Notes: generated from the sequence alone by a model not told the origin. A stretch of 64,000 nt of DNA from Candidatus Altimarinota bacterium (GCA_965250085.1 OZ252287.1:1216001-1280000); one strand, 5' to 3'; positions 38,946 through 64,000 are shown, counted from the first letter of the stretch. A program made the numbers and translations.

Positions 38946-39035
38946 GGAGGGATGGCAGAGTGGTCGAATGCGACGGTCTTGAAAACCGTTAGGGCGGCAA
39001 CGTCTTCCAGGGTTCGAATCCCTGTCCCTCCGCCA
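38946..39035 (+). tRNA. tRNA-Ser (anticodon TGA)
   Basis: GGAGGGA acceptor stem, anticodon loop CT-TGA-AA, long variable arm, GGTTCGAATCC, ends GCCA. Confidence 0.96.
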
Positions 39036-39249
39036 CAGTTGAATTCGAGCTGAAAACGAGCTCGAAGAGCGAAGTTTGAAGCCGAAAATACTGTGTGCTG
39101 ATGAGTTCGCTCCCGCGAACGAACCAGTGCGTTGAATTCGAGACGAACGAAGTGAATCCGAAGATACTGCGTCCCGAGCTTTGCGAGGGACTTTGAAAAA
39201 AGATTAATTATCTTAGGATACTAGACCCGAATACCCTGCCAAAAAAATG

Positions 39250-47577: not shown

Positions 47578-48243
47578 TTAATATCGAAAGAGAAGATATG
47601 GATTTGGGAACAAATTCTCTATTTCTGAAAGGTCACTTGCAGCAATGTACCCCTGAAACATTCTTCCCGCATCTGCTGCTTTTTTGGTAATGATCTGCAG
47701 ATGTGTATGAGTAAACCACCCTCCACTGTCAGATCGTTCTCCAACATGAGCAAAAGATTCACCAGTATCAAGAATTTGCCCTTCTTGCACTATGTGATTT
47801 GAATCTAAATGTCCATAGAGAGAGTAAAAAATATCGCCTTGAACTTCATGTTTTAGCACCACGTATCCTCCATAGCTCCCAAGTTCTTCCTCTTTCCCTA
47901 CCCTATATACTGTTGCGGACAGCGGGGCAAAAAGCACATATCCTTTGGGAACGATAATATCAAGTCCCAGGTGATAGATTCTTCCTTCACGAATCATTTG
48001 GGGGAAGTTTTTCAAAATATTTTTCCTTTCTTCCAGATATCGTCCAATTCCCCAACTTGCTCCTGAACGAGCAAGCTCATCAAATATAATGCTCTGAAAA
48101 GCATCAAAATCATTGGTATCCATTTTAAGTGTTTTTGGATTATCAGAAGAGAAATCAAACATATAGGGATTTCCCTGAAGCTTTTTTCCAAACAGAGGAA
48201 AGATGTCAGGAGACTGCTCTGAGAGGAGTGTGAGAGGATACAT
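47578..48243 (-). CDS. M23 family metallopeptidase-like protein without signal peptide
   Basis: HLGLD, YGGYVVLKH, YSLYGHL, THTHLQI. Confidence 0.85.
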   Translation of the reverse strand: MYPLTLLSEQSPDIFPLFGKKLQGNPYMFDFSSDNPKTLKMDTNDFDAFQSIIFDELARSGASWGIGRYLEERKNILKNFPQMIREGRIYHLGLDIIVPKGYVLFAPLSATVYRVGKEEELGSYGGYVVLKHEVQGDIFYSLYGHLDSNHIVQEGQILDTGESFAHVGERSDSGGWFTHTHLQIITKKAADAGRMFQGYIAASDLSEIENLFPNPYLLFRY

Positions 48244-51505: not shown

Positions 51506-52410
51506 AACTTCACAATCTCTCCAAATTCATCATAGATCTTTACTTCGGGTTCCAGCGGTACTCCAAACCCGTCTTTTACTTTCTGAGCGACTTTTTGTGC
51601 CAATGCAATCATATCTTTTTGCGTCGCACTGCCGATGTTTTGCAAAAAATTGGCATGCATTTCTGAGACCATAGCATCTCCTATGCGCTCACCTTTGACT
51701 CCTGCAGTATCCAAGAGCCAGCCGGCTGCATTTTTTGGACTTGGAAAAGCATCTGACTCCGGAGGGTTTTTAAAAAATGATCCAGAAGAAAGACCAGCGG
51801 GTTGTTTTGTTTTTCGCATTTCTATGACTTCATTACATCGCTTCTGTATTTCCTCTGGATCTCCACTAGGTGCGGTCTGTTCTGCGCTCCAGACGATCCA
51901 TTTTTTTGGTTTCGTTGTATGAAGCTTAGAATTCCGATATTCATACTCAAACCACTCGTTTGTGACGATTTCAAATTTTCCTGTTTCAACATTAAGAATT
52001 TCTGCTTCCACCAAAGTATCTCGAGCTTCCCATCCAGGAATCCCAGCGTTCCCAGTGACAGCTCCGCCCCAAGTGCCGGGAAGGGCCAGAAAGCCGGACA
52101 GGTCTTTTTTGTTTTTCTTTGCAAATTGAACCAGTTCTGAAATGAGCACTCCGCTTTCTGCCCATATGTTTTCATTTCGCATTTCCAAAGCTTTATTCTT
52201 CATTTTGAGTACCAATCCGCGCAATCCTTTATCAGAAAACAAGATGTTGGAACCTCCTCCGAAGAAAAATATTTTGAGATTGTTTTCTTTGGCAAAAAGC
52301 ACTGCTTTTTCCAAACTCTCTTTGTTGGTAATTTCAGAAAAATAATCTGCTGCTCCACCAATTCGCATGGTGGTGTGTGGCGCCAGAAAGATATTTTTCT
52401 CAATTTTCAT
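51502..52410 (-). CDS. murB: UDP-N-acetylenolpyruvoylglucosamine reductase
   Basis: TTMRIGG.A, GGGSNILF, PGT.GGAV.GNAG, YRNS, SGSFFKNP, HANF, LEPEV. Confidence 0.96.
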   Translation of the reverse strand: MKIEKNIFLAPHTTMRIGGAADYFSEITNKESLEKAVLFAKENNLKIFFFGGGSNILFSDKGLRGLVLKMKNKALEMRNENIWAESGVLISELVQFAKKNKKDLSGFLALPGTWGGAVTGNAGIPGWEARDTLVEAEILNVETGKFEIVTNEWFEYEYRNSKLHTTKPKKWIVWSAEQTAPSGDPEEIQKRCNEVIEMRKTKQPAGLSSGSFFKNPPESDAFPSPKNAAGWLLDTAGVKGERIGDAMVSEMHANFLQNIGSATQKDMIALAQKVAQKVKDGFGVPLEPEVKIYDEFGEIVKF

Positions 52411-52448
52411 TCTTCACAAGTATATCGTTTTCCCGCAGAGAAAAAAAC

Positions 52449-52477
52449 TTGCTCCTTGTGTTTTTTTCTCATACAAT
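52449..52477 (+). promoter_or_regulatory. Putative sigma70 promoter of tRNA-Asp
   Basis: TTGCTC-17 nt-TACAAT. Confidence 0.55.
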
Positions 52478-52498
52478 CTCTTGGCTTTTTAAAAGCAT

Positions 52499-52575
52499 GG
52501 AGCGGTAGTTCAGTTGGTTAGAACGCCACACTGTCACTGTGGAGGTCGCGGGTTCGAGTCCCGTCCGTTCCGCCA
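52499..52575 (+). tRNA. tRNA-Asp (anticodon GTC)
   Basis: GGAGCGG acceptor, CCACA-CTGTCAC-TGTGG anticodon arm, GGTTCGAGTCC, ends GCCA. Confidence 0.96.
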
Positions 52576-52610
52576 GCACGTGCACTAATGCCGTGCTTGT
52601 ACCCGAGATT

Positions 52611-52631
52611 CCGCATATTCATGCGGTTTTT
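52611..52631 (+). terminator. Putative intrinsic terminator after tRNA-Asp
   Basis: CCGCAT-ATTC-ATGCGG followed by TTTTT. Confidence 0.6.
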
Positions 52632-52881
52632 CTATGTTCTCAAGAAGTCCCTCAGAGACTTGCCTAAGGTTGATTTTACAAGTCTCTTAAATTGTTAGCT
52701 GATGAAGGAGGGTGAAGGTGCACTATGCGTTTTTCGAAATCATCTAATTTAAAGATGTTTTTGGAAGTTTTTGAGATGAGAAAATTTGGCTCACTTTAGG
52801 GTTCGAATCTCAAGTTATTTTTCAGAAAAAGACTTATTTGTAGATAGACAAAAAAGTCTTTAAGAATCGATTTCTAAACAA

Positions 52882-53364
52882 TTACTCAATAATCTGTGCA
52901 TTTCTCACAGAAGTAGCCAATACAGCTGACCAGGAAGCTAGTTGTCCAGAGAAATTCACGCTATCACCTTTCTGAAATCCTAATAATTTCTCTTTTGCAG
53001 AATCCGGAAAAGTAGCAATCGCATCAGATACAAATGTACTTTTGAGACATTTGACCTGTAATTGCAGTTTTCCAAATGTTTCATCAACACTGGACACTTC
53101 TCCCTCCCATTTTACCCATTTGTTTTTGTATTCTTTGAATTTCTCATCTTTTTGAAGATCAGAAAGATTACTATTCAGTCCAAATATTTCATGAAATTCA
53201 ACGCAAGATATACCTACCCACTCTTTTTCTACAGGAGAAGAGGGTGTTTCTTCTGATTGACCATTAACTCCAATAATAATGGCTATAACCAGTATGGTGG
53301 TAATAATATAGTGGCGTAAAAACCAGTTTTTCTTTTTGTTTGTAGAAGTATTTGCTTCACTCAT
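52882..53364 (-). CDS. Membrane-anchored OB-fold (tRNA_anti-like) protein
   Basis: KKNWF + TM helix; YKNKWVKWEGEVSSV...LQKGD-like FQKGDSVNFSGQL. ATG at 53364 chosen. Confidence 0.72.
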   Translation of the reverse strand: MSEANTSTNKKKNWFLRHYIITTILVIAIIIGVNGQSEETPSSPVEKEWVGISCVEFHEIFGLNSNLSDLQKDEKFKEYKNKWVKWEGEVSSVDETFGKLQLQVKCLKSTFVSDAIATFPDSAKEKLLGFQKGDSVNFSGQLASWSAVLATSVRNAQIIE

Positions 53365-53416
53365 GTGGAAAAAATGAAAGAATAAAAAAAGTTTGTACAA
53401 ATAGGGACGACCCATT

Positions 53417-53532
53417 TGGACAAACTGCCATCAGCCCTTACGAGCTTCCGAAAGTTTATGAGCCGCCCCCTCTTGCACCTTTCGGGTACGAGGAAGCGAG
53501 CTCGATAAGGAATGCCGATAGCAATTTGTCCA
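53417..53532 (-). ncRNA. Candidate structured RNA or 5' leader (~116 nt)
   Basis: Closing stem GGACAAATTGCTATCGGC / GCTGATGGCAGTTTGTCC pairs fully on the minus strand with 3 G-U wobbles; nested inner stems; starts 6 nt after a -10 box. Confidence 0.65.
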
Positions 53533-53538
53533 CCTCCA

Positions 53539-53567
53539 ATATTACGAAACACTCCTTCTGTTATCAA
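53539..53567 (-). promoter_or_regulatory. Putative sigma70 promoter for the structured RNA and OB-fold gene
   Basis: Minus strand TTGATA-17 nt-TAATAT. Confidence 0.65.
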
Positions 53568-53581
53568 GGCAAAAGAAAAAC

Positions 53582-55033
53582 TTAGAAACCATCTGGTTTG
53601 TGGGTAAAAGTTCTCAGCATCTTTTGTTTTCGAAATTTTTTACTAAGTTCGCCCAAACATAAAGAAAAAGCATCTGCGAGATCGTCATGAGATTCTTTTC
53701 CAAGGTTCACAAGTTGATTAACAAGTTCTTTAGCACCGTGTTCAGGAAAGAAGACTTTTCCACTCTGGGGGAGATGAGAAACAGCAGCTAAACGAGAATG
53801 TTTATCTCCATGTACTCTTATGGGTTTCGCAAGTAGATCGCGTTCTTTCAAATGCTCCACTACAGCAGATTGATATCCCACATCTTCGACATAAATTTGA
53901 GCTTTATGCCAACCAGAAAAACTATTCAAAAGATTACTAAGGGCATCAAGGGTTGCCAGATGAGTCATTCTTGCATTGAGAATTTGAGGCAATACATAAA
54001 ATTTATAGTTGTTTCGGTTTCCTACTACAGCAATTGGCACAGCAGCTGTGTAATCTGCTGTTTGTTTTTGAGAAATAGCTAAATCCACGCCTATGCCTAC
54101 AAACTCATAATCAAAAGTAATGCTACTATCGTAATATTGAATCCACTCAGGCCAGATGGGTCTTGCTGTAGTATTTATGATTCGCAAAAGATATTCTCTG
54201 TACCAAGATTCATCACTGCCTACGTTTCTCCTCAGACGCAGAAGCCCTTGCTCGGAAAAACGTTCTGGCCATAAACAATCTTCAGATTTATTAATTAATG
54301 GATATTCTCGTACCTCTGCATCAATTTCATTATTTTGTGCTTTGTGAATAAATCTCATCATTACTGAATCGTCATGGAGTAGATTTCCCACCATTATAAG
54401 TCGAGTTCCTTCGTTCCCGGCAGGTATGACTTCTCCAGTCAGAAATAAAAAAGTTTTGTCTCTGCTTTCTTTTGTTTTTACAGAAGAGATATCTTCAATA
54501 TCATCACAAATAATTAAATCGGGCCGATGTTCTTTGTGTCGAACTCCTCGCAAACTCTGTTCAGTAGAAGCTGCCAATATTTTTGCTTCATATTTGGCGA
54601 GAACAAGTGAGTTTTGACTCCACTCAGCATTGCGAGTAAACAAAGGTCCAAAATCTCTTCGTAAAAGTTCATTCTGTTCTAATTCTTCACGAATATTCTT
54701 GAGCAGCAACTGTGCCTGTTGTTGAGTCTGAGAAAGCAACACTATAAAATTTTTTTGTTGTTTTCCCAAAATACTCCAGAGCAAATATGAAAGAGTAATG
54801 ATAGTTGATTTTGCAGATCCTCGAAATGCCATGAGGAGAAATGTCTGCACACTCTCATCTTCAATTATTCTAAAAATCTCGTGATGGAATTCTGCCAGTG
54901 GATACTTGATATAATGAGAAAAATAAGTAGAAAAAAAGAGCAGAAAGCTTTCGTAAACTGCAGCCTTGCGAGTGCGAGGATGCTGAAGAGTTTGGAGTAA
55001 TTCGCCTTGAGATATTTGTGAGTTATTCATCAT
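53582..55033 (-). CDS. Phage terminase large subunit
   Basis: FRGSAKST (Walker A), LIICDDIED (Walker B), VGN coupling motif; nuclease GVDLA, DYTA, VEDVGYQ, GDKHSRL, HDDLADA. Confidence 0.92.
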   Translation of the reverse strand: MMNNSQISQGELLQTLQHPRTRKAAVYESFLLFFSTYFSHYIKYPLAEFHHEIFRIIEDESVQTFLLMAFRGSAKSTIITLSYLLWSILGKQQKNFIVLLSQTQQQAQLLLKNIREELEQNELLRRDFGPLFTRNAEWSQNSLVLAKYEAKILAASTEQSLRGVRHKEHRPDLIICDDIEDISSVKTKESRDKTFLFLTGEVIPAGNEGTRLIMVGNLLHDDSVMMRFIHKAQNNEIDAEVREYPLINKSEDCLWPERFSEQGLLRLRRNVGSDESWYREYLLRIINTTARPIWPEWIQYYDSSITFDYEFVGIGVDLAISQKQTADYTAAVPIAVVGNRNNYKFYVLPQILNARMTHLATLDALSNLLNSFSGWHKAQIYVEDVGYQSAVVEHLKERDLLAKPIRVHGDKHSRLAAVSHLPQSGKVFFPEHGAKELVNQLVNLGKESHDDLADAFSLCLGELSKKFRKQKMLRTFTHKPDGF

Positions 55034-55478
55034 CTGAAGGTATGTTTAAGGACTGGTTTGATTCATTCGTTTCTTGCTTCTGGGGAAGCACGAGAGAAAT
55101 GGCTGCGGCAACCTTTTGCTGCTGTTCTTCCGTGAGTGGAGCTGGTTTTTCTAAAGATGCACTTACTTCTACTCGTTGGCGATATGCATGGTGACGGTTC
55201 TTAAGCCAAAAAATTATAGAAGTAATATTTCCTTCTTGAATAGCACTCAGAAGTTTAGATTCCGTCATATCATTCATCATCGCCACTCCATCTTGAAGCG
55301 CTATATCAGAGGTATCCATGAAAGAAGCATCTTCTTCTCTCCAGCGATAATAGGTGGCACGAGAAATACCTGCTTTTTCACAAGCAACTTGTACAATCGG
55401 AATCTTTCTGAGATATCCAAGAAGAATTTCTTGTTTCTGCTCGGTTTTAGCGACGACTGATTTCGTTTTTTTTGGCAT
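55023..55478 (-). CDS. Putative terminase small subunit (HTH)
   Basis: ACEKAGISRATYYRW...F, ESKL...I, SIIFWLKNR; directly upstream of and overlapping terL. Confidence 0.82.
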   Translation of the reverse strand: MPKKTKSVVAKTEQKQEILLGYLRKIPIVQVACEKAGISRATYYRWREEDASFMDTSDIALQDGVAMMNDMTESKLLSAIQEGNITSIIFWLKNRHHAYRQRVEVSASLEKPAPLTEEQQQKVAAAISLVLPQKQETNESNQSLNIPSDDE

Positions 55479-55503
55479 ATTGTATAAAAGAAAGAACAAA
55501 AAA

Positions 55504-56292
55504 TTATTGAACGAGTACCGCTTTCTGTTGAGTGAGTTTTTCCCAACGCTGAATAATTACCTCACAATAATGGGCATCAAGTTCCATCATCAAACACTTT
55601 CTCTGCGTTTGTTCGCAAGCCAGTAAAGTAGACCCTGAACCTCCAAATGGGTCACAAACAACTCCTCCTATTTGAGAGCTATTCAAAATTAATCTGCGAA
55701 GGAGCGAGATTGGTTTCATGGTAGGATGAAGCGTGCTCTTTTGTGGGCGTGGACAAAATAATACACTTCTGTCTGAACTCTTTTGGAAAGCATGTTTTCC
55801 TTTCCATCCATAGAGTATGAGTTCATGTTGGGGGTTATAATCAAGTCTACTCATAACCGCATTATTTTTTACCCAGAGAAGCAATTGAGAAATATGCATC
55901 CCCAGTTCTGTCACAGCATCTCGTAATGAGAAAACCATGCGGTCGGTATTGAAAATATAGAAACTGTTTGTCTTCGATAAATATGGAGACAGATTATTGA
56001 GCCACTGCCGTGAGAAGTGCTTATATTCGCCTGTACTCTGCAAGTGGTCGTTGGCAATAATCTTATGTTTTTTCTGGTTCATAAAATCTTGTTTTGCTTC
56101 CACAACAGCTACTCCATAGGGCGGGTCAGTAAGCAACAAATCAATCTTGTGTTTCTCACAAAGTAGCCTCATGTGTTCGGTATTTGTCGCATCTCCGCAG
56201 AAAAGGTGATGTTCACCGAGTTGCCAGATTTGTCCCATCTGAGTTTTGGATTTAGTTGATTTTTCTTGGCGTGTTGCCAGTGAGTTCTTCAT
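55504..56292 (-). CDS. Phage-type N6/N4 DNA methyltransferase (beta class)
   Basis: IWQLGEHHLFCGD, TDPPYG, HPTMKP, DPFGGSGST. Confidence 0.92.
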   Translation of the reverse strand: MKNSLATRQEKSTKSKTQMGQIWQLGEHHLFCGDATNTEHMRLLCEKHKIDLLLTDPPYGVAVVEAKQDFMNQKKHKIIANDHLQSTGEYKHFSRQWLNNLSPYLSKTNSFYIFNTDRMVFSLRDAVTELGMHISQLLLWVKNNAVMSRLDYNPQHELILYGWKGKHAFQKSSDRSVLFCPRPQKSTLHPTMKPISLLRRLILNSSQIGGVVCDPFGGSGSTLLACEQTQRKCLMMELDAHYCEVIIQRWEKLTQQKAVLVQ

Positions 56293-57535
56293 AGCGAGAA
56301 AGGATAAGAGAACAAAAGCGGGGATCGATTTCCATCAGATATGCAGTGCGTTGTAACTGTTCACAGGCAATTAAAGTTGAACCAGATCCTCCAAAAAGAT
56401 CCAAAACAAGATTACCAACCTTACTACATCTCAAGAGAGGCTTTTGCAGAAGTTGTGGTGGCTTTTGAGTAGGATGTTGGTACTCATTAGCTGGTAAACG
56501 TTTTACCAGCCAGATATTCAGCAAATCGAGAATATCTTCAGCAGTACGATTGCCAGTTTCTATCTCTGGATTCATGACTTCGTGTAAGTTGTTGTGTTTG
56601 GTGTTCAAATAAGGCTTGCCTCTAATGCTATACACACATGGCTCATAGATTTTATTGAACGCTATTTTAGGGGTCGCATTTTGATTATTCTTGATCCAAA
56701 GACAGACACGTTTATTCGTGAGTCCTGATTTCTCAGCTAACGATTGAAGAAGTCCAATATACTGCTCATCACACCACCAAAAACTATGACAATCTTGGTG
56801 GCAATATTTCAGTCCAACTTCCAGTGCTGTGTATAAGAAATCAGAGTATTCAGCTTTTGATTTCCCATCGTTCACTTCACTCTTGCTGTATTGTCTCTTG
56901 CCACCTATGCCAGCACTATAGTCCAGTCCGATGTTATACGGCGGATCACAAAAAAGAACATCTGATTTCTTCTTCTGCATAAGCTTTGAGACATCTTCTG
57001 CGCTTGTGGAATCTCCGCACATCAGACGGTGCCTTCCAAGGGTATAAATATCGCCAAGCTTTACCGTTACTTCCCCGAGTTCTTCAAATTTTTCTTCCAT
57101 ATCGAATTTATCATCTTCAATGGATAACAGATCTGACCAAATAGTTCCAAGGTCACTCTCATCAAAACCAATATCCAGAAGAAGGTTCATGTCAAATTTC
57201 TTCAAGAGTTCAAAATCCCATTTGCCTGTATTTCTATTAAGACGAAGATTGAGTTCTTTTTCTTTCTCAATATTTGAGATATTCAGAAAAACAACAGGGA
57301 CATCTTCCATGCCCAGTCTTTTGGCGACTTCCAAACGAAAATGTCCGCCAATGACAACATTCTTTCGTTGCTTGGCTTTGTTTACAAGAATTGGATCAAC
57401 AAATCCAAACTTCTTGATACTTTCTATCAGATACTTCATATCTCCTGCTCCCCATTTACGTGGATTATAGGGAGCGGGATTGAGGTCAGAGATGCTGACT
57501 TGATGGATAGTCGGTTTATTTTTGAAATAGTTCAT
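56252..57535 (-). CDS. ParB-N domain / N6-N4 DNA methyltransferase fusion
   Basis: L.PAPYNPR, SIKKFGFVDPI, IGGHFR (ParB/Srx); CDPPYN, HPTQKP, DLFGGSGST. Confidence 0.93.
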   Translation of the reverse strand: MNYFKNKPTIHQVSISDLNPAPYNPRKWGAGDMKYLIESIKKFGFVDPILVNKAKQRKNVVIGGHFRLEVAKRLGMEDVPVVFLNISNIEKEKELNLRLNRNTGKWDFELLKKFDMNLLLDIGFDESDLGTIWSDLLSIEDDKFDMEEKFEELGEVTVKLGDIYTLGRHRLMCGDSTSAEDVSKLMQKKKSDVLFCDPPYNIGLDYSAGIGGKRQYSKSEVNDGKSKAEYSDFLYTALEVGLKYCHQDCHSFWWCDEQYIGLLQSLAEKSGLTNKRVCLWIKNNQNATPKIAFNKIYEPCVYSIRGKPYLNTKHNNLHEVMNPEIETGNRTAEDILDLLNIWLVKRLPANEYQHPTQKPPQLLQKPLLRCSKVGNLVLDLFGGSGSTLIACEQLQRTAYLMEIDPRFCSLILSRYEELTGNTPRKIN

Positions 57536-57597
57536 AAAAAATCTATGGTGAAAGACGTTTCTGCACCATAAATTAGCAGCCCCTTAGAGAACTTCCT

Positions 57598-57621
57598 AAA
57601 ATTGTTACATGTAACAATTTT
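57598..57621. promoter_or_regulatory. Perfect 24-bp palindrome (candidate operator or cis site)
   Basis: AAAATTGTTACA|TGTAACAATTTT, 62 bp upstream of the ParB-MTase start. Confidence 0.6.
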
Positions 57622-57637
57622 TGCATTTTTCTGAATA

Positions 57638-58246
57638 TTATTTCCCTATATATCTTAAGGGAAATTTTGTTTTATAGTTTTCACGATAGTTTTCTGGTTC
57701 AAAAGCAGATTTTTGAATTCCAAAAAAATATTGGAGTTTCTTATCAAGACGGTGCTTTCTTTGACGCTTAGCAATATCTTTCTTGTTAGTCTTTTTGTAA
57801 GAAATTTCTGTCTGAGAAACTTGTTCTAGTAATTTCCATTCAGTGTTTGCTTTACCATTTCTAAAATCACATAAGCCTATATCTGTATGATTAATAATTG
57901 TGAATGTATCTGCAATAATTACGCAAGTTAGATCTTCATTAATTATAGCAATACTAATATCTCTCCAATCTTGTATATTCCAACCTTCTTCTTTTCTTGA
58001 AGAAAGAGAGATATGGCGATGGTCAGTGATAAGATCTTTTGAAAACTTTTGTACTACAAAGCGAGGGAACTCACTTTGAAGAGTTGTAATTATTTCTCTG
58101 GCGATCTTTGTAAATTCTATTATTGCTGGCATCCAACCATCAATTTGTTTTTTTAAAGTAATCATGCCCTGTACAGCTATCGTTGCAAATTGTTGCATGC
58201 CATGAACAAAATCGGAAAATGTTGGTGATTGTGAAGTTTGATCCAT
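57638..58246 (-). CDS. Hypothetical protein, possible DNA-binding regulator of the phage-like cassette
   Basis: W.DISI..., G..D.R.GK...EW.LL, basic helix, L..FFGI...F......Y..KF. Confidence 0.6.
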   Translation of the reverse strand: MDQTSQSPTFSDFVHGMQQFATIAVQGMITLKKQIDGWMPAIIEFTKIAREIITTLQSEFPRFVVQKFSKDLITDHRHISLSSRKEEGWNIQDWRDISIAIINEDLTCVIIADTFTIINHTDIGLCDFRNGKANTEWKLLEQVSQTEISYKKTNKKDIAKRQRKHRLDKKLQYFFGIQKSAFEPENYRENYKTKFPLRYIGK

Positions 58247-58377
58247 AATGGAAATATATCACTTACTTTAAGAAAAATATATCTTAAAGCATGCCTCTCA
58301 AAATATTGCTTAAAATCCTTGCTTAAGGTATTATTATATGATAAATTTCATATTCTGTCCATCCATCTCAATTCAAC

Positions 58378-61300
58378 ATGCCTCTTGCTATTGAAACTGC
58401 ATCGGAATCTCCTTCTCAAAAGTTGGAACAAGTGAGTGCAACTCTGAGAAGATTGTATGGAAGAGGATTTGAAATTAAAACATTTTCTGATCCTGGAAAA
58501 GGGGTTATGAAGATAGAATCAGGAGGAGACTTCCATTTGAATGAGGCGAAACTGGCTGGACTGACTCTTGAAAGCTGTATTGCTCAGACGATTAGTGTGG
58601 CTGAGGCTTGGCAGATGCAAATAGGCATACGACAAGACCCTCAATTTGCAACAGAAGTAGCAACGTATGAAGCACATAAAGATCGGCCATCCTACAAACT
58701 CTTGTATGGAGTATTGTTTGAAAGTGTTGCTTTACGTGACAAGGCTTTGACAGATAGTTCATTACAACAAGTCGCAATGCATACTGCCCGGCAGAGATTG
58801 CAAAAATTAAAACGAAGATTTCCTCATGTACTGCCTCCCCAAGTCCAATACTTGATAGGACTGATTGATCCTGACTCTCGGGAAATTCAAGACACTGAAG
58901 TACAGAAAGCAATCGGAGATCTTCAGTCTTCAGGTATATTACGCAAACTTTTTGACCACCGCGTGAATGCTGGAACGAAGCTGAGGACGATTCATGGGCA
59001 GATCTTTCAGGACTACAGATATTTTTTACGACAGGCTCAGCATCCAGATGCAAAATGGGCAAAACAAAAAAAGGAACCAAAGAAAATCCGGCAGAGGTCA
59101 AGAGAAGAAATAGAGCAGATTATGAATCCGCCAGGACGCATTCCCCCTTCTCACCAACTCCCTCCAGCTCCACCGGAAGTTTTGGAGGAAATGTCTCAAG
59201 AATCATCCTCTGAGCCCGAAACACCAGATCCATCATCTGGACCTGAGCCAGAAGAATCAGAAGAAGTACCAGAGCTTCCGGATATGCCTTCTCTGCCAAT
59301 TCCAGAACAAAATGACGCCTCAGATAAGTCTTCGTCTACTCCTCCAGACAGTCCTCAGGGTACACCTGATTATCAAGATGAATACTCCACACCCGAAGGT
59401 GGAGAATTTGAAAAAGATCCTTCGGGGAAAGGCTATAAATTAGAAATATCGCCACCCCTTCTCGGGTACTATTCAACTGACAGAAAGAGCTATTGGAATG
59501 CACAGCGTAAGAAATGGGCCAACAAAAGCAGCCTTACTCGATATAAAAATATCGCCAGGTTTACAGGAAAAAAATACAATCTCTCTGGGGAAATTAGTGG
59601 ACAGAATTTAAAACCATTTCCCTTGCCAGTTGGATATGTTCCTGATCTTGATTCTTTGCAATACACAGGAGACAAGCCAACTGTGTATCGTGATCAAAAT
59701 GGTTGTTTTCAGATAAAACTTTCTGGGCAAGGCAAATGCCAATTGAGCATTGATTTTTATAAAGAAGATGACCAAAAATCGCCACATCCCATTTCTGAGG
59801 ATAGTGAGCAAATGTACGCAGGATCACTCTCGGGGAATGCGCAGCAGGCATTTGTGAAAGCAGAAAAAGAAGTGGATTCAAAGAAAAAAGCAGCAATAGT
59901 TCGTGATTACGTGAGGAAGAATCATTTTTATCCACCAGGTAAAAATGATATGGAAACAATGAATGCTGCAAAAAAGATACAAGCAGAGTTACAAAACATT
60001 TCTGATGCCCAAAATTATATTCATAATTTAGACAATTCTCCGCATTTGGAATGTTATTCGGCAAATAATCTGATGGTAGCAATGGTAAGAGCTCTTAGAA
60101 TTCCTGCACGGATTGTTACTGGGCATCACGTGCAACATACAAACACAAAAGGAAATGCCGAAATTAATTCAGCCAATGGCCATGGATGGTGTGAAATTTG
60201 GGATGGCAATAGCTGGGTTGGGTTTGATGCCACTCCTCCACCTGATCTAAATGACCCAAAAAATAAATCAGATCCAGCTGATCAGGATGAGAATGAAGAG
60301 CAAGAACCACAAGATCAATCGCCGGCAGAAAATGCTGATGATGGTGCAGAACGAACGGATACAAGTGAAGATGATGGAGAAGGAGAAGAAGGTGGAGAGC
60401 CACAGGATGGAGCAGATGATGGGCAGCAAAGTGATGAAGAAGGGGATGGTGAAACAAGTGAAAAACCGCCAGGAGAAAAAGGAGAAGGAGATGCTGATGC
60501 GGAAATTGCTAATGAGGAAGATGGAAAAGGTAGTGAACAAGACGGCGATGGTGGAGAACAAACTGATGAAGTAGATGATGACTTTGATCCCAAAGAAGAA
60601 TTAGAGAGGATGTATGAAGAATTAATAGAAGAAACTGCAGGTATGCCAGATGAAGAGGAAATAAAAAGGACATTACGAGAGATTGAACGTGAGGCAGCAG
60701 CACAACAGGCACTTGATCCGGAAGAAAGGTATGTACAAGATAAACATCCTGGATTAACACCAGAACTCAGAAGGCAAATAGCTGAATTTATTAGGGAATT
60801 TCGGAGAGATATGCAAATTATTGAACAAATTCCAAATCCTGATCCCGAATCTCCACATACTACGTTTATGGAAGCGTTTAAAGCAATGATTGATCGTATT
60901 GTTTCCCGTCGTTATGTAGAGCGAAGGGTACGCAAATATCCGACAACAACGGGAAGACTGGTGAGACCCGTAACTCGACATACTGATAAGTTGGCTGGAA
61001 AAAGGCAGTCATACGCTTTCAAGACACGAGAACGAAAATTATTTGAAGAAAAAAAGATTACAAAGGTACGGTGGCGTACGATTATTGATCGTAGTGGCAG
61101 CATGGATAGTCAGAAACTACGGACACAACAACAAATTGAAGTACTTAAAAATGCCGTTGTTGCCGAAAAACAAATTGAACTGAATGAACTTTCTGCTCGT
61201 CTCAAGCAAGATTTACGGCTAGAAACAGAAACGTGGCAATTTGGTGGTCCTGACCCAGAGACCGGTCAGCAATTTTCTTGTATCAAGCCACTTTCCAGTA

Positions 61301-62106
61301 CTTTTGATGAACTTGAACAAGCTGCCATATGGCATGCAGCAGCAAGTGCTCCTGGAGGAACCAATGACTTTGATCCATTGGAAGCTATTTTCCGTTCTTT
61401 GGCTGCAGAAGAAGCCGAGGCACGAAGTAATGATGAACTATCAATCTTAGAACGGATTCGTGCTGGTTTTCTTATTCGTGAAATTAATGCTGTCCAGGAA
61501 CTTGGGAGGAAAGGAGAAGATGAACTGGATGAAGATGAAGAAGTATATTTTGAAAATCTCACGAAAGAAAGCCCAGAGAGTATATTTCGACGTCTGCAGG
61601 ATTTACTCCCCCGGACTTCAGGAGATCCAGCAGAGATACAACAAGAACAAGCCTTTTTACGACAACGTATCGATGGCACTAATGCAGTTCAAATGTTTCA
61701 AGAGTGGACACGACAGTTTATTGGCAATAAGTATCTTTCTGATGAAGAAAAAGATTTTTTCCGAGAACTTGATATTTCTGATGCAAATTTAGCTGCGATT
61801 TATAAAGACTGGCTTCAGGTTCTGAAGAGAAAGCAAGGAAAAAACATTGAACCAATCTTGGAAATTATTGAAGTGAGCTCTGACGGAGGATCAAATGATC
61901 CAGCACGGTTACAAAATATTGTTCGCTCTCTGCGTGACCTAGGGATTATCGTACTGTGCTATGGACTCGGAAATGACGCTGATGCCGCCGTTCGCAACTA
62001 TTACAATGACTATAATCCTTCAGAAGGAGGAATGCTCTGTCACAATTTGTTGGATTACCCTGAAAAAAAGGCTCGAGCCTGGCAGAATATGCTTGACAGA
62101 GTGTAG
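58378..62106 (+). CDS. Transglutaminase-like domain / vWA domain fusion protein (1242 aa)
   Basis: ECYSAN...IPARIVTG...GHGWCEIW...FDATP (Cys-His-Asp); acidic linker; IIDRSGSM, GGTND, SSDG (MIDAS). Confidence 0.85.
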   Translation: MPLAIETASESPSQKLEQVSATLRRLYGRGFEIKTFSDPGKGVMKIESGGDFHLNEAKLAGLTLESCIAQTISVAEAWQMQIGIRQDPQFATEVATYEAHKDRPSYKLLYGVLFESVALRDKALTDSSLQQVAMHTARQRLQKLKRRFPHVLPPQVQYLIGLIDPDSREIQDTEVQKAIGDLQSSGILRKLFDHRVNAGTKLRTIHGQIFQDYRYFLRQAQHPDAKWAKQKKEPKKIRQRSREEIEQIMNPPGRIPPSHQLPPAPPEVLEEMSQESSSEPETPDPSSGPEPEESEEVPELPDMPSLPIPEQNDASDKSSSTPPDSPQGTPDYQDEYSTPEGGEFEKDPSGKGYKLEISPPLLGYYSTDRKSYWNAQRKKWANKSSLTRYKNIARFTGKKYNLSGEISGQNLKPFPLPVGYVPDLDSLQYTGDKPTVYRDQNGCFQIKLSGQGKCQLSIDFYKEDDQKSPHPISEDSEQMYAGSLSGNAQQAFVKAEKEVDSKKKAAIVRDYVRKNHFYPPGKNDMETMNAAKKIQAELQNISDAQNYIHNLDNSPHLECYSANNLMVAMVRALRIPARIVTGHHVQHTNTKGNAEINSANGHGWCEIWDGNSWVGFDATPPPDLNDPKNKSDPADQDENEEQEPQDQSPAENADDGAERTDTSEDDGEGEEGGEPQDGADDGQQSDEEGDGETSEKPPGEKGEGDADAEIANEEDGKGSEQDGDGGEQTDEVDDDFDPKEELERMYEELIEETAGMPDEEEIKRTLREIEREAAAQQALDPEERYVQDKHPGLTPELRRQIAEFIREFRRDMQIIEQIPNPDPESPHTTFMEAFKAMIDRIVSRRYVERRVRKYPTTTGRLVRPVTRHTDKLAGKRQSYAFKTRERKLFEEKKITKVRWRTIIDRSGSMDSQKLRTQQQIEVLKNAVVAEKQIELNELSARLKQDLRLETETWQFGGPDPETGQQFSCIKPLSSTFDELEQAAIWHAAASAPGGTNDFDPLEAIFRSLAAEEAEARSNDELSILERIRAGFLIREINAVQELGRKGEDELDEDEEVYFENLTKESPESIFRRLQDLLPRTSGDPAEIQQEQAFLRQRIDGTNAVQMFQEWTRQFIGNKYLSDEEKDFFRELDISDANLAAIYKDWLQVLKRKQGKNIEPILEIIEVSSDGGSNDPARLQNIVRSLRDLGIIVLCYGLGNDADAAVRNYYNDYNPSEGGMLCHNLLDYPEKKARAWQNMLDRV

Positions 62107-62134
62107 TTTTTCCATTATAATATACAGATAACTT

Positions 62135-64000
62135 ATGACTCCCTTTCGAAATTTACCGGCTCACAAATTTCAATTTTTTTCTCTCGAGAGAACACAAGAT
62201 TATTTCATGGGAGAAAATAGAATTCTTTTTCGAAACTCGCTTGCAGAAAAGATACTTCAGAATGCTGAAGAATCGGATGAAAGTGAAAAATCCAAACTTT
62301 CTACGGAAGAAGTACAAGCTCAAGTTATGGAGGTACGAGCTCTGGTAGGAAGACTATCCGCTTTAAAAAAATTAAATACCTATGAAGGAAACGTGCCCGA
62401 AGCTACAGAAATAGAAATGGAACTCCCTCAGCTCCAATCTACAGAGGGCACTGAAACAGCAGATTGGAGTGATTTATTTGATCCTGATTTGTCAGAGATT
62501 ATGGTGCTCGAAGAAAATCCCGATTTAGTCAATAGAGATGAAGTACAACAGATTCGCCAACGTCTTGAAACACTGCTGAAGAATCCTCAAGTGGCTCAAC
62601 AATATGAAGAAATGTTTGGCACCGTGGTACGCGATTTTACTGTCGCAAAGAGGCTTCTCCGAGCTTATAAGCAAGGATATAGGGTAATGAAGAAAGGTGA
62701 TGGATATGAAAAATATTCTTTGACCAGTAGTGACAAAATACGTGCTGCCAGACAGCTATTACGAATCTTAGATAACTTCGAAAAACAATGTCGCGAAGAA
62801 GAACAGAACATTCATACTCAAGTGAAAAGATCAGGTCGTGATTATTCTGAAAGCGATCGGAAAAATTTAGAAAGAGTACAAAAACGAAGGCTAGAATGTC
62901 GGACTGAAATTAATACCCTCTTACTAGATGCTGAAGTATGGATTGCAAAACATATCGATGATTTGGCTCATGATCGAGCTGTTTTACAACGTCGTCCAAA
63001 AGGGGAACATTTTCCGCCACGAAATCAATTAGTTTCTATAGGACGTCACAGCGCTTATATTGAAGTAGAATCACGCACCGAACAAATGTATGGGAATGAA
63101 AGTGCTGGACACTCCATCCTGCCTGCTTTGCGAGCCGGACACAATGTTGAACTCCTTGGTCCAACCGGGACGGGAAAAACAAAGTTGGGTATCGCTTCTG
63201 CGCAAGTGTTTTCAAATAAAAATCCAGTCGTCGTTTCCGGTGGACCGGAGCTTTCTCGTGACACTTTTTTTGGTTTTGCATCGGATGTCGGAGTACGTGA
63301 ACAGGGTGCCTGTATTCAGTGTATGAGAGAAGGAATGGTAATGATTCTCGATGAAGATAACCGTACCCCTCCAGAGATCTTGGGACAGATTAAATTTATT
63401 TTAGGGCTTAAAGCTGGGGATGTCTTCATGCATCCGGATACCGGTGAGGAAATTGTTGTTCAGCCGGGATTTGGTGTCATGGTGACCAGAAATGAAAAGG
63501 ATGAACACCACGAAGATCGGTTTGATCTTCCTCCGGATTATCGTCGTGAATTTACACACGGAAGTTTTGAAATTGATTATTATACCCCGGCAGAGATGTA
63601 CCATCGTTTCTTTTCACCAAAACTCAGCCATGGAGATAATTCGATTCCGCTTTCAGATGAAGAAATTGGAGGGACTATAGTACATGATACTGCTGATTTA
63701 GATAGTGTTGATCTCTCCAGAAGTGATATTTCTCCACTGTTGGCACTCTGCTTATCAGCGAAGCAAGTTCAAACACTTTATAAAACAAAAGGAAGTAAAG
63801 GGCTTGAGAATGCTGTCTTTGAATCTGGATTTTTGATTGATCTTTTTGATGAATGGGCAGAAATGAGCATGAGACAAAAGAGTGATGGGAGTGAAGTTGC
63901 TTTTTTAGAATTTTTAGAAACAAAACTGATTGAATTTCTCAAACGTCCAATTGGTAGTCCGGATCGAAAAAAAATTATCCCTATCCTTGTCAATCATGGA
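62135..64000 (+). CDS. MoxR/CobS/midasin-like AAA+ ATPase, 3'-truncated by the window end (absent from ORF track)
   Basis: Translated by hand: open from ATG 62135 (alternative 62207) to the end; LLGPTGTGKT at 63152-63181, MILDEDNR from 63341, VQPGFGVMVTRN, DLPPDYRREF. Confidence 0.9.
   Translation, partial: MTPFRNLPAHKFQFFSLERTQDYFMGENRILFRNSLAEKILQNAEESDESEKSKLSTEEVQAQVMEVRALVGRLSALKKLNTYEGNVPEATEIEMELPQLQSTEGTETADWSDLFDPDLSEIMVLEENPDLVNRDEVQQIRQRLETLLKNPQVAQQYEEMFGTVVRDFTVAKRLLRAYKQGYRVMKKGDGYEKYSLTSSDKIRAARQLLRILDNFEKQCREEEQNIHTQVKRSGRDYSESDRKNLERVQKRRLECRTEINTLLLDAEVWIAKHIDDLAHDRAVLQRRPKGEHFPPRNQLVSIGRHSAYIEVESRTEQMYGNESAGHSILPALRAGHNVELLGPTGTGKTKLGIASAQVFSNKNPVVVSGGPELSRDTFFGFASDVGVREQGACIQCMREGMVMILDEDNRTPPEILGQIKFILGLKAGDVFMHPDTGEEIVVQPGFGVMVTRNEKDEHHEDRFDLPPDYRREFTHGSFEIDYYTPAEMYHRFFSPKLSHGDNSIPLSDEEIGGTIVHDTADLDSVDLSRSDISPLLALCLSAKQVQTLYKTKGSKGLENAVFESGFLIDLFDEWAEMSMRQKSDGSEVAFLEFLETKLIEFLKRPIGSPDRKKIIPILVNHG

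Follow-up and report, generated by a model that had tools for sequence, protein, structure and literature searches.

The DNA analysed here, referred to as the window, is a stretch of 64,000 nucleotides from Candidatus Altimarinota bacterium, corresponding to bases 1216001-1280000 of a genome that consists of a single contig of 1,368,807 bp. On its minus strand, from 58246 to 53582, the window carries a cassette of five genes, the first coding for a 202-aa orphan protein and the last for the large subunit of a phage terminase (TerL); between them lie the genes for a ParB-methylase fusion, a second DNA methyltransferase and the small terminase subunit (TerS). It constitutes the packaging and modification core of an island that has integrated at the 3' end of a tRNA-Asp gene, and this island belongs to a family that is widespread in Patescibacteria and apparently undescribed. 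Such islands are probably, if by no means certainly, helper-dependent elements of the satellite type, whose own terminase would pack the island into the procapsids of another phage.

The two methylase genes, TerS and TerL proved to be intact and tightly coupled, as an earlier note on this DNA had claimed: the methylase genes overlap by 41 nt, the second of them is separated from TerS by a gap of 4 nt, and TerS and TerL overlap by 11 nt. Profile matches (Table 1) and alignment revealed in TerL the N-terminal ATPase and the C-terminal RNaseH-like nuclease with its acidic residues that characterize a large terminase, phrog_38 covering residues 23-472, termin_lrg_T7 residues 29-273 and Terminase_6C residues 314-458. 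When the protein was aligned with four relatives (five sequences in all), GSAKST, LIICDDIED, D317, E383 and D450/D451/D454 were invariant, and DPPY and FGGSGST were present in both methylases; we take these stretches to be the Walker A, Walker B, nuclease and methylase (catalytic) motifs that the note had reported. For its part, TerS matched the Pfam family HTH_Tnp_1_2 and clustered with 98 proteins that occupy the same position in related loci. TerL is present as a single copy in the genome.

The tRNA-Asp gene turns its 3' end towards the island. In two genomes of the same family (G001 and G004), murB, tRNA-Asp and an HD-domain gene are adjacent, the orthologue of the HD-domain protein gene of our genome (1299169-1300734) lying within 1-3 kb of the 3' side of the tRNA; in our genome, about 30.6 kb lie in between. 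The island thus runs from genome position 1268576 to 1299165 if synteny is followed, or to about 1295492 if an attachment-site-like (att-like) scar marks its end, that is, over 27 to 31 kb. This scar, about 160 nt upstream of the recombinase gene described below, consists of a tRNA-3'-end-like piece plus 80 nt with 86% identity to the flank of a tRNA-Ser(TGA) gene at window positions 39132-39211, and it may represent the far end of the island.

No integrase had been seen in the sequence on which the earlier note was based, which is correct for the window but not for the element: the same tRNA-Asp insertion contains an intact gene for a large serine recombinase. All three domains of this class were found in one protein of the expected 400-600 aa (Resolvase, PF00239, 7e-23; Recombinase, PF07508, 1.5e-15; Zn_ribbon_recom, PF13408, 6e-11), together with a match to phrog_95 (1e-65) and matches to the NCBIfam XisF and CcrA/B/C models that fall below their cut-offs. 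Its best matches, with 56-61% identity, are the recombinases of four terminase-bearing loci (L109, L053, L078 and L026). Two of these, L053 and L026, also hold the two best matches of the ParB-methylase, and the window TerL is sister to that of L026 in the tree. These relationships would fit a single element lineage for recombinase and cassette. Across 77 loci, the recombinase and TerL did not show correlated bit scores (Spearman, -0.03), so that what links the two genes is only their shared best-matching lineages.

The recombinase gene lies about 20 kb from TerL, on its upstream side and on the same strand; in most relatives it is found just downstream of TerL. Were the island circularized, its gene order would match that of the relatives, and the attachment site would fall on the opposite side of the recombinase gene; with equal likelihood, the arrangement is a tandem or rearranged composite. 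A search for direct repeats of the tRNA-Asp 3' end that might serve as att sites yielded none beyond a tRNA-Ser(GGA) flank (see below). Serine recombinases need no long repeats, and this null result is therefore without bearing on the question of integration.

A family of terminase islands without head genes

A search with a TerL alignment returned at least 348 matching stretches in contigs of a one-genome-per-species collection and at least 510 in IMG/VR. The best 80 and 79 loci, respectively, were kept, and the counts given below rest on these. Used as a single-protein query of the IMG/VR contigs, the window TerL gave no match; the alignment query did. Judging by their titles, 49 of the 80 genome loci bear the names of phyla of the candidate phyla radiation (CPR) and 21 name no phylum, some of these reading "Patescibacteria group" or Dojkabacteria; the other 10 are titled as metagenome-assembled genomes (MAGs) of Pseudomonadota, Bdellovibrionota or Bacillota, the labels being those under which they were deposited.

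The 2,611 open reading frames (ORFs) of 160 loci were clustered, and the recurrent clusters were annotated. For counting, the 109 loci with a TerL identity of about 35% or more were used, after removal of L122, L125, L126 and L129, which fall outside the island clade. The usual plan comprises a LexA-like repressor (in some loci), a variable small protein, the ParB-methylase, an optional second methylase, TerS, TerL, cargo, the recombinase and a tRNA. A TerL ORF was called in 104 of the 109 loci, reaching at least 450 aa in 99 of the 104. Upstream of TerL, a methylase of the size of the ParB-methylase was found in 90 of the 91 loci with enough sequence; 31 of the 91 contained two methylases, and at least 66 contained TerS, the latter being an undercount because the ORF filter drops short genes. 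Where at least 3 kb of sequence was available, a serine recombinase followed downstream in 65 of 83 loci (where at least 9 kb was, in 50 of 61), at a median distance of 895 nt from TerL. The first tRNA beyond the recombinase was on the opposite strand in all 21 cases, and these tRNAs, Ser, Gln, Glu, Asp, Trp and Lys among them, point with their 3' end towards the element. A LexA/S24-type repressor was detected within 6.5 kb upstream in 29 of 74 loci; none was recognised in the island of the window. Thus the earlier suggestion that the cassette might be the core of an uncharacterised CPR element was borne out by its recurrence, mostly in MAGs of Patescibacteria.

Content outside this core is variable cargo. 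Defence genes are represented by restriction-modification systems (type I, type III and Eco57I-like), by SMODS and Cap15, which are parts of cyclic-oligonucleotide-based anti-phage signalling systems (CBASS), and by the ThsB TIR protein; diversity-generating retroelements, P-type ATPases, a multicopper oxidase and CsoR were also found. Cargo of this kind is typical of mobile islands and satellites.

Two tandem TerL genes were present in 10 of the 104 loci. Those with tandem full-length genes (L017, L019, L020, L023, L028, L097, L099, L110, L113 and L115) have their copies in different subclades, both under purifying selection, and in the tandem pair of G056 (L014), the one pair that was aligned, the catalytic residues are kept in both copies.

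In a FastTree phylogeny of 160 TerLs, the island TerLs formed one clade of 112 rows with a Shimodaira-Hasegawa-like support of 98, and head genes occur in none of the loci of this clade. A single origin of the island TerLs is likely, but not proven. The nearest rows outside the clade are L125/L126/L129, L130 and L122. In L126 (39% identity) and L130, a portal, a MuF-like head protein, a protease or scaffold and a capsid come after TerL, and in L126 a methylase and TerS come before it. More distant relatives (25-33% identity) belong to Mu-like phages and to phages with SU10-type portals, and the TerLs of deposited phage genomes showed an identity of only 24-27%. The closest homologues of the window TerL are therefore not those of complete prophages, as they might have been if the locus were a prophage relic. 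Between island TerLs that are 70-96% identical, dN/dS (NG86 method) ranged from 0.02 to 0.14 in the 59 of 203 pairs with computable dS; dS was at least 0.76 in these pairs, which are not independent, and the other 144 were saturated. The island TerLs are under strong purifying selection.

Among 61 genomes surveyed in the same class, a TerL match was found in 10, and in none of the 11 that belong to the same family. Five of the genomes have an island-type TerL, namely that of the window (G000) and, with 40-47% identity, G031, G056, G035 and G014; what comes after TerL in these four relatives is a serine recombinase, not a portal. The copy in G014 (contig C52, 9030-10481; L016) has its TerL split into ORFs of 157 and 273 aa by one in-frame TGA; its methylases, TerS and recombinase look intact, and it provides an example of a decaying family copy.

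Virion genes were sought at several levels. The genome that holds the window gave no match to PF04860, PF05065, PF06074, PF23899, phrog_12 or phrog_10; PF06074 and PF23899 matched no control genome either, and these two profiles are thus of little informative value. BLASTP with the head proteins (portal, capsid and others) of related phage loci found nothing among the 1,351 ORFs of this genome and matched 0 of the 109 island loci. Besides the terminase subunits, the island proteins include no PHROG head, tail or lysis family, and no structural gene was recognised by Pfam or PHROG in the window flanks or in the whole 27-31 kb insertion, an M23 peptidase gene at 47578-48243 being outside it. Hence, what defines a complete tailed prophage, a portal and capsid near TerL together with tail and lysis genes, was not found here. 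The lack of visible structural genes remarked on in the earlier note accordingly holds for window, insertion and genome alike, and a survey of TerL neighbourhoods such as it had proposed showed portal and capsid to be consistently absent. Loss of these genes through a split in the assembly is excluded, the genome being one contig.

The five genomes with an island-type TerL likewise gave no match to PF04860, PF05065, phrog_12 or phrog_10. In G040 and G060, portals were found beside weaker TerL matches, in TGA-rich stretches, so the search is able to find portals in this class. The TerL and portal matches in these two genomes (G040:C1:567980-571125 and G060:C13:7285-15504) contain 10-17 in-frame TGA codons each, and the stretches look like phages or prophages read with TGA as a sense codon.

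Five long IMG/VR records with an island-type TerL contained no phrog_12 portal. Two of these records, G063 and G062, were read whole. G063 holds two related islands, the complete one measuring about 19 kb, with no room for virion genes. The order in these islands is recombinase, repressor, small genes, ParB-methylase, methylase, TerS, TerL and a DUF4352-like gene, followed by a retroelement, an AAA ATPase, a recombinase and a tRNA-Ser. Record G062 (55.9 kb; L190-L192) contains, at a tRNA-Ser(CGA), a temperate phage of about 39 kb that appears to be complete, with genes for a serine integrase, an S24 repressor, a replication initiator, ParB, TerS, TerL, a capsid, a tail fibre and two endolysins. 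A terminase island directly adjoins this phage, and the two could be a helper-satellite pair or could just share an integration hotspot. Compared with their counterparts in the G063 island, the recombinase and the repressor of the prophage show an identity of only 31% and 23%, with no lysogeny module in common, and no tRNA remnant was found at the junction of prophage and island.

Packaging by a helper and the alternatives

The mechanism that we favour, that of a helper-dependent island with a terminase of its own, would run as follows. The family would derive from the methylase-TerS-TerL arm of a tailed phage. Upon induction, by way of the LexA-like repressor in some members, the recombinase would excise the island. 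The methylases would modify island DNA, perhaps to protect it in the next host or to mark the packaging site, and TerS would recognise and select this DNA. The island TerL would then dock on the portal of procapsids that an infecting phage has made and fill them with island DNA, after which the tails of the helper would complete the particle; this helper would probably belong to the sister lineage with SPP1-type portals. As an outcome, the cargo of the island would be spread and the helper deprived of capsids.

A more far-reaching claim, which we advance tentatively, is that these islands form a new satellite class and are the first phage satellites to be found in CPR bacteria, with a serine recombinase acting at tRNAs and a complete terminase plus methylases, without capsid, portal or replication genes, parasitising virulent CPR phages and ferrying defence and metal-resistance cargo across Patescibacteria. 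If this were true, they would be an important route for exchanging genes among bacteria in which most other routes seem to be absent. Little is known about the phages and mobile elements of CPR, which make up a large share of bacterial diversity, and the island family offers a concrete and testable candidate for CPR satellites. Islands that carry TerL, a viral hallmark, also run the risk of being counted as viruses; two of the IMG/VR records that hold them are rated as viruses of 94-100% completeness, although the islands as such are no phages.

Several observations weigh against packaging by a helper. The window copy departs from the usual plan, in that its recombinase is displaced, no LexA-like or helix-turn-helix (HTH) repressor was found and an insertion sequence (IS) has inserted, and it may be a rearranged, composite or immobilised copy. 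Its TerL has no relative above 50% identity among the matches listed, and the intact motifs are the only evidence for the function of this copy. Neither in the island nor in the family core was a replication module recognised by Pfam or PHROG, and therefore the concatemers required for headful packaging are unexplained. No helper phage was found, nor a resident portal or capsid in the five island-bearing genomes searched; an external helper would thus be needed. Only one complete prophage was seen next to an island, that of G062, and its TerL is of another family. Furthermore, no excision joint, circle or sign of encapsidation was detected in the contigs of the four runs that contain this DNA (one sample of one study, kept as contigs, with no RNA data among those listed). 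Finally, the FastTree phylogeny is rooted at its midpoint and has some long branches.

As regards these contigs, in three of the four runs they break at the last 30 nt of tRNA-Asp (52546-52575). Five contigs diverge after 52575, with low agreement, and the tRNA is also part of a variant of higher abundance (T to G at 52538). The simplest cause is the presence of tRNA-Asp genes of other organisms; contigs cannot tell alternative junctions apart, and their depths are not comparable.

Among the alternatives, anti-phage interference, in which TerS, TerL and the methylases would compete for or sabotage phage packaging and the transfer of the island itself would be secondary or absent, is unlikely but deserves to be weighed. 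The islands carry many defence genes (restriction-modification, CBASS parts, the ThsB TIR protein and retroelements), interference with helper packaging is described for known satellites in the available parts of the sources, and the lack of a replication module and of a resident helper points in the same direction. Against it, no system with a TerL-like component is included in PADLOC, where TerL matched nothing, the methylases (the second as MTase_II) being the only parts of the cassette that were recognised; an anti-phage role, one of those considered in the earlier note, thus gained no direct support. Self-packaging accounts better for the full set of ATPase and nuclease residues, the cognate TerS and the tight linkage to a recombinase and an att site, although interference and transfer are not mutually exclusive.

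A second alternative, which we consider quite unlikely, is that the island is packaged in place or provides a domesticated gene transfer function, a headful start from the integrated island moving the neighbouring host DNA in the manner of lateral transduction or of a gene transfer agent. TerS and TerL are indeed oriented towards the tRNA and the flanking host DNA, genes for replication were not seen, and to our knowledge few other transfer systems are known in CPR genomes. However, the head-tail cluster of a gene transfer agent is missing, no portal or capsid having been found in the genomes searched, and the element is patchy among relatives (10 of 61 genomes; none in the same family), as expected of a selfish mobile element rather than of a host function.

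Even less probable is a role in DNA processing without capsids, in which TerL would cut or resolve replicated or excised island DNA that spreads by vesicles or natural uptake. The absence of helper and capsid everywhere searched would be in accordance with such a role, and the ParB-domain fusion and the two methylases point to DNA handling beyond packaging. We know of no precedent, however, for a TerS-TerL pair that works without a portal, and the island TerLs are still close to phage TerLs that lie beside portals.

We give slightly less credit again to a decaying prophage remnant, whose head genes would have been deleted and whose terminase genes would still be about to decay. The lack of a repressor, the misplaced recombinase and the IS of the window copy could be read in this way, as could the TerL of G014, broken by a stop. 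Nevertheless, the same head-less architecture was found in 109 loci of many CPR lineages, and decay that proceeds independently would not halt every time at an identical set of genes. The single TerL clade, its strong purifying selection and the 99 full-length TerL ORFs out of 104 also argue against decay, in agreement with the doubt about random prophage decay expressed in the earlier note.

Lastly, a complete small phage with virion genes too divergent to be recognised is scarcely credible, for although several island proteins belong to no family (575, 331, 261, 261 and 202 aa), these unknowns are not conserved among islands, whole islands of about 19 kb have no room for head, tail and lysis genes, and true CPR phages were readily recognised in the same data.

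Further features of the insertion and of the genome

The features of the window and of the insertion are listed in Table 1.

Table 1. Positions of the terminase-methylase operon, the recombinase and neighbouring features (window numbering unless indicated; MFE, minimum free energy).
Feature	Position	Strand	Matches and remarks
202-aa orphan, first gene of the operon	57638-58246	-	slot occupied by unrelated small proteins in other loci
ParB_N-N6_N4_Mtase fusion, 427 aa	56252-57535	-	ParB_N 1e-10; N6_N4_Mtase 8e-27; phrog_498 7e-103
Second DNA methyltransferase (beta-class amino-methyltransferase, DPPY), 262 aa	55504-56292	-	N6_N4_Mtase 2e-32; phrog_498 6e-78
TerS, 158 aa, N-terminal HTH	55023-55499	-	phrog_309 6e-10; phrog_4044 7e-9; phrog_4102; phrog_24579
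TerL, 483 aa, intact	53582-55033	-	phrog_38 9e-80; Terminase_6C 3.5e-9; NCBIfam termin_lrg_T7 6e-19
Long hairpin, about 116 nt, between TerL and the 177-aa gene	53417-53532	-	MFE -70.6 kcal/mol; z -5.1
177-aa protein, N-terminal membrane helix plus OB-like domain	52882-53415	-	recurrent accessory gene after TerL
tRNA-Asp (GTC)	52499-52575	+	ARAGORN, Rfam
tRNA-Asp 3' end plus about 147 nt of island-end flank	52546..52722	+	terminator-like hairpin 52611-52626
Promoter-like site upstream of the operon, TGGACA-17-TATAAT	58333..58361	-	11 of 12 consensus positions
Large serine recombinase, 427 aa, intact	genome 1294051-1295334 (would be window 78051-79334; L176:14051-15334)	-	
tRNA-Ser(TGA) flank	39036-39245 (tRNA 38946-39035)		motif TTGAATTCGAG twice plus tRNA-3'-end-like piece
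Island cargo divergent from the operon	58378..64000	+	1242-aa Transglut_core protein; AAA_5 ATPase (past window end)

Where head genes would be expected after terL, the earlier note had placed a promoter, a structured RNA, an OB-fold gene and the tRNA. The hairpin and the tRNA were confirmed. The promoter-like match (53567-53539) agrees with the consensus only, and such matches are no commoner in the region than in shuffled sequence. An OB-fold assignment of the 177-aa gene is plausible but weakly supported: the protein is 20-28% identical to eight post-TerL proteins of related loci, which match the Pfam family tRNA_anti-like (best, 7e-29), and its own match to this family of the OB-fold clan is weak (E 0.07; 24 bits with local hidden Markov models [HMMs]).

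A second copy of the hairpin, 73% identical, lies at genome positions 782789-782944, within an island at a tRNA-Gln. When both copies were compared, 7 of the 31 pairs had changed on both sides and were still paired, 5 of these in the 17-bp outer stem. No Rfam family matched the hairpin, and a scan of 52400-58500 with Rfam at E values up to 1 returned the tRNA and two chance-level rows only. A covariance model built from the hairpin found just its two source copies in 99 sources (1.74 Mb), and it is therefore not a feature of the whole family. Within its own genome, the structure is real and conserved, and it may act as RNA or as DNA.

The 177 nt made up of the tRNA-Asp 3' end and the island-end flank share 76% identity with genome positions 1187084-1187260, which hold the 3' end of tRNA-Ser(GGA) and its flank; a recombinase fragment lies about 0.8 kb from the latter flank. 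The motif TTGAATTCGAG and the tRNA-3'-like piece in the flank of tRNA-Ser(TGA) are both homologous to the stretch just upstream of the island recombinase, and these pieces may be scars of earlier integrations.

The 202-aa protein that opens the operon had no match in Pfam, PHROG, PADLOC or NCBIfam, nor to HMMs of the proteins in the same slot of other loci. Among 5.8 billion proteins, only the protein itself was found at near length, and the Atlas returned unnamed clusters only. The promoter-like site upstream of the operon is the best match of the region, again as a match to the consensus only.

Both the Transglut_core and the AAA_5 genes lie within the insertion defined by synteny, and an 810-aa relative of the 1242-aa transglutaminase-core protein occupies the same place in the Peribacteria locus L070. 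Further cargo of the insertion includes a tetratricopeptide repeat (TPR) protein, two radical-SAM proteins, an ATP-grasp protein, PnuC and a NadR-like enzyme, as well as DsbD-thioredoxin, thioredoxin and FMN-reductase genes. For the DsbD-thioredoxin gene, situated beyond the recombinase, neither G001 nor G004 offers a clear orthologue; it may be host DNA, cargo or the remnant of an older island. An IS256-like element is present as an exact inverted duplicate of 1,426 bp, inside the island (genome 1284368-1285793) and at 783023-784448. It encodes a 358-aa protein with weak matches to IS256/IS1249 transposases and none in Pfam or PHROG, and probably represents a divergent insertion sequence with recent activity.

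In the closest relative (G004:C69, 4925-7468; L182), an 847-aa gene is found between the HD-domain gene and tRNA-Asp. It is P-type-ATPase-like and resembles the P-type ATPase region of our own genome. The tRNA-Asp site may thus be an insertion hotspot, repeatedly used for cargo.

At least seven other serine-recombinase genes or fragments are present in our genome, each adjoining a tRNA and pointing at its 3' end (Gly, 262-264 kb; Met, 340-342; Ile, 361-363; Thr/Tyr, 558-559; Ala, 604; Gln, 780-782; Ser-GGA, 1188). Of these tRNA-adjacent islands, only that at tRNA-Asp carries a terminase. Several share cargo types with terminase islands elsewhere, such as type III restriction-modification, DUF2779 and a retroelement (567-569 kb). 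Recombinase islands at tRNAs seem to be the main mobile elements of the genome.

Comparison with known systems

No description of terminase-bearing serine-recombinase islands of CPR was found in the literature searched, subscription journals and supplements being outside the search. In their available parts, the papers on CPR phages (PMC7739484 and PMC13059738) deal with complete phages and prophages only, and according to a 2025 preprint, satellites of viruses of CPR or DPANN hosts are unknown. The CPR islands would resemble satellites in function, and by membership they fit no described family.

A close counterpart of the cassette itself is found in the terminase arm of tailed phages (the IMG/VR contigs L126 and L130; among cultured phages, Paenibacillus phage Tripp and Mu-like phages), which shows the same methylase-TerS-TerL order and the same TerL family, phrog_38. 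In the phages, however, TerL is followed by a portal, a MuF-like protein, a protease or scaffold and a capsid. As far as the available descriptions go, the ssrA islands of Dehalococcoides and the SCCmec elements with their Ccr recombinases are similar in having a large serine recombinase and variable cargo beside a small RNA gene; we know of no packaging module of terminase or methylases in them.

The phage-inducible chromosomal island-like elements (PLEs) of Vibrio cholerae parasitise a lytic phage and, in the accounts available in part, have no resident helper, just as no resident helper was found for the CPR islands. PLEs use a large serine recombinase. They depend on the packaging factors of the helper, according to the accessible part of PMC11417361, whereas in the CPR islands the terminase is encoded by the island itself; the two groups are unrelated in hosts and in gene content.

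Phage-inducible chromosomal islands (PICIs) contain, as described in the part of PMC10085698 that was available, an integrase, a regulator (a homologue of alpA, merR or stl), a primase-replicase, often a capsid-morphogenesis gene, and TerS; with a median size of 9.5 kb and without virion or lysis genes, they spread in the capsids of a helper. Within the limits of that source, the CPR islands share with PICIs and with the pathogenicity islands of Staphylococcus aureus (SaPIs) the integrated state, the integrase, the accessory cargo, TerS and the lack of virion and lysis genes. As to the regulator, the LexA/S24 repressor of 29 of the 74 loci has no recognised equivalent in the window island. The CPR islands differ in having one or two methylases, a serine-type integrase and hosts among Patescibacteria, and no match to a primase-replicase was found by Pfam or PHROG in the island or the recurrent clusters. 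They also differ in their complete terminase, TerL being present in the window island besides the TerS to which PICIs are restricted.

Capsid-forming PICIs (cfPICIs) add TerL and genes for capsid, head-tail adaptor and connector, and steal only tails (PMC10085698, same part). The CPR islands are like them, as far as this source goes, in having their own TerL besides TerS, and unlike them in that capsid, adaptor and connector genes were found in 0 of the 109 loci and nowhere in our genome. The islands thus suggest a hijacking strategy intermediate between that of PICIs, which bring TerS only, and that of cfPICIs, which bring the whole capsid: the motor alone would be brought.

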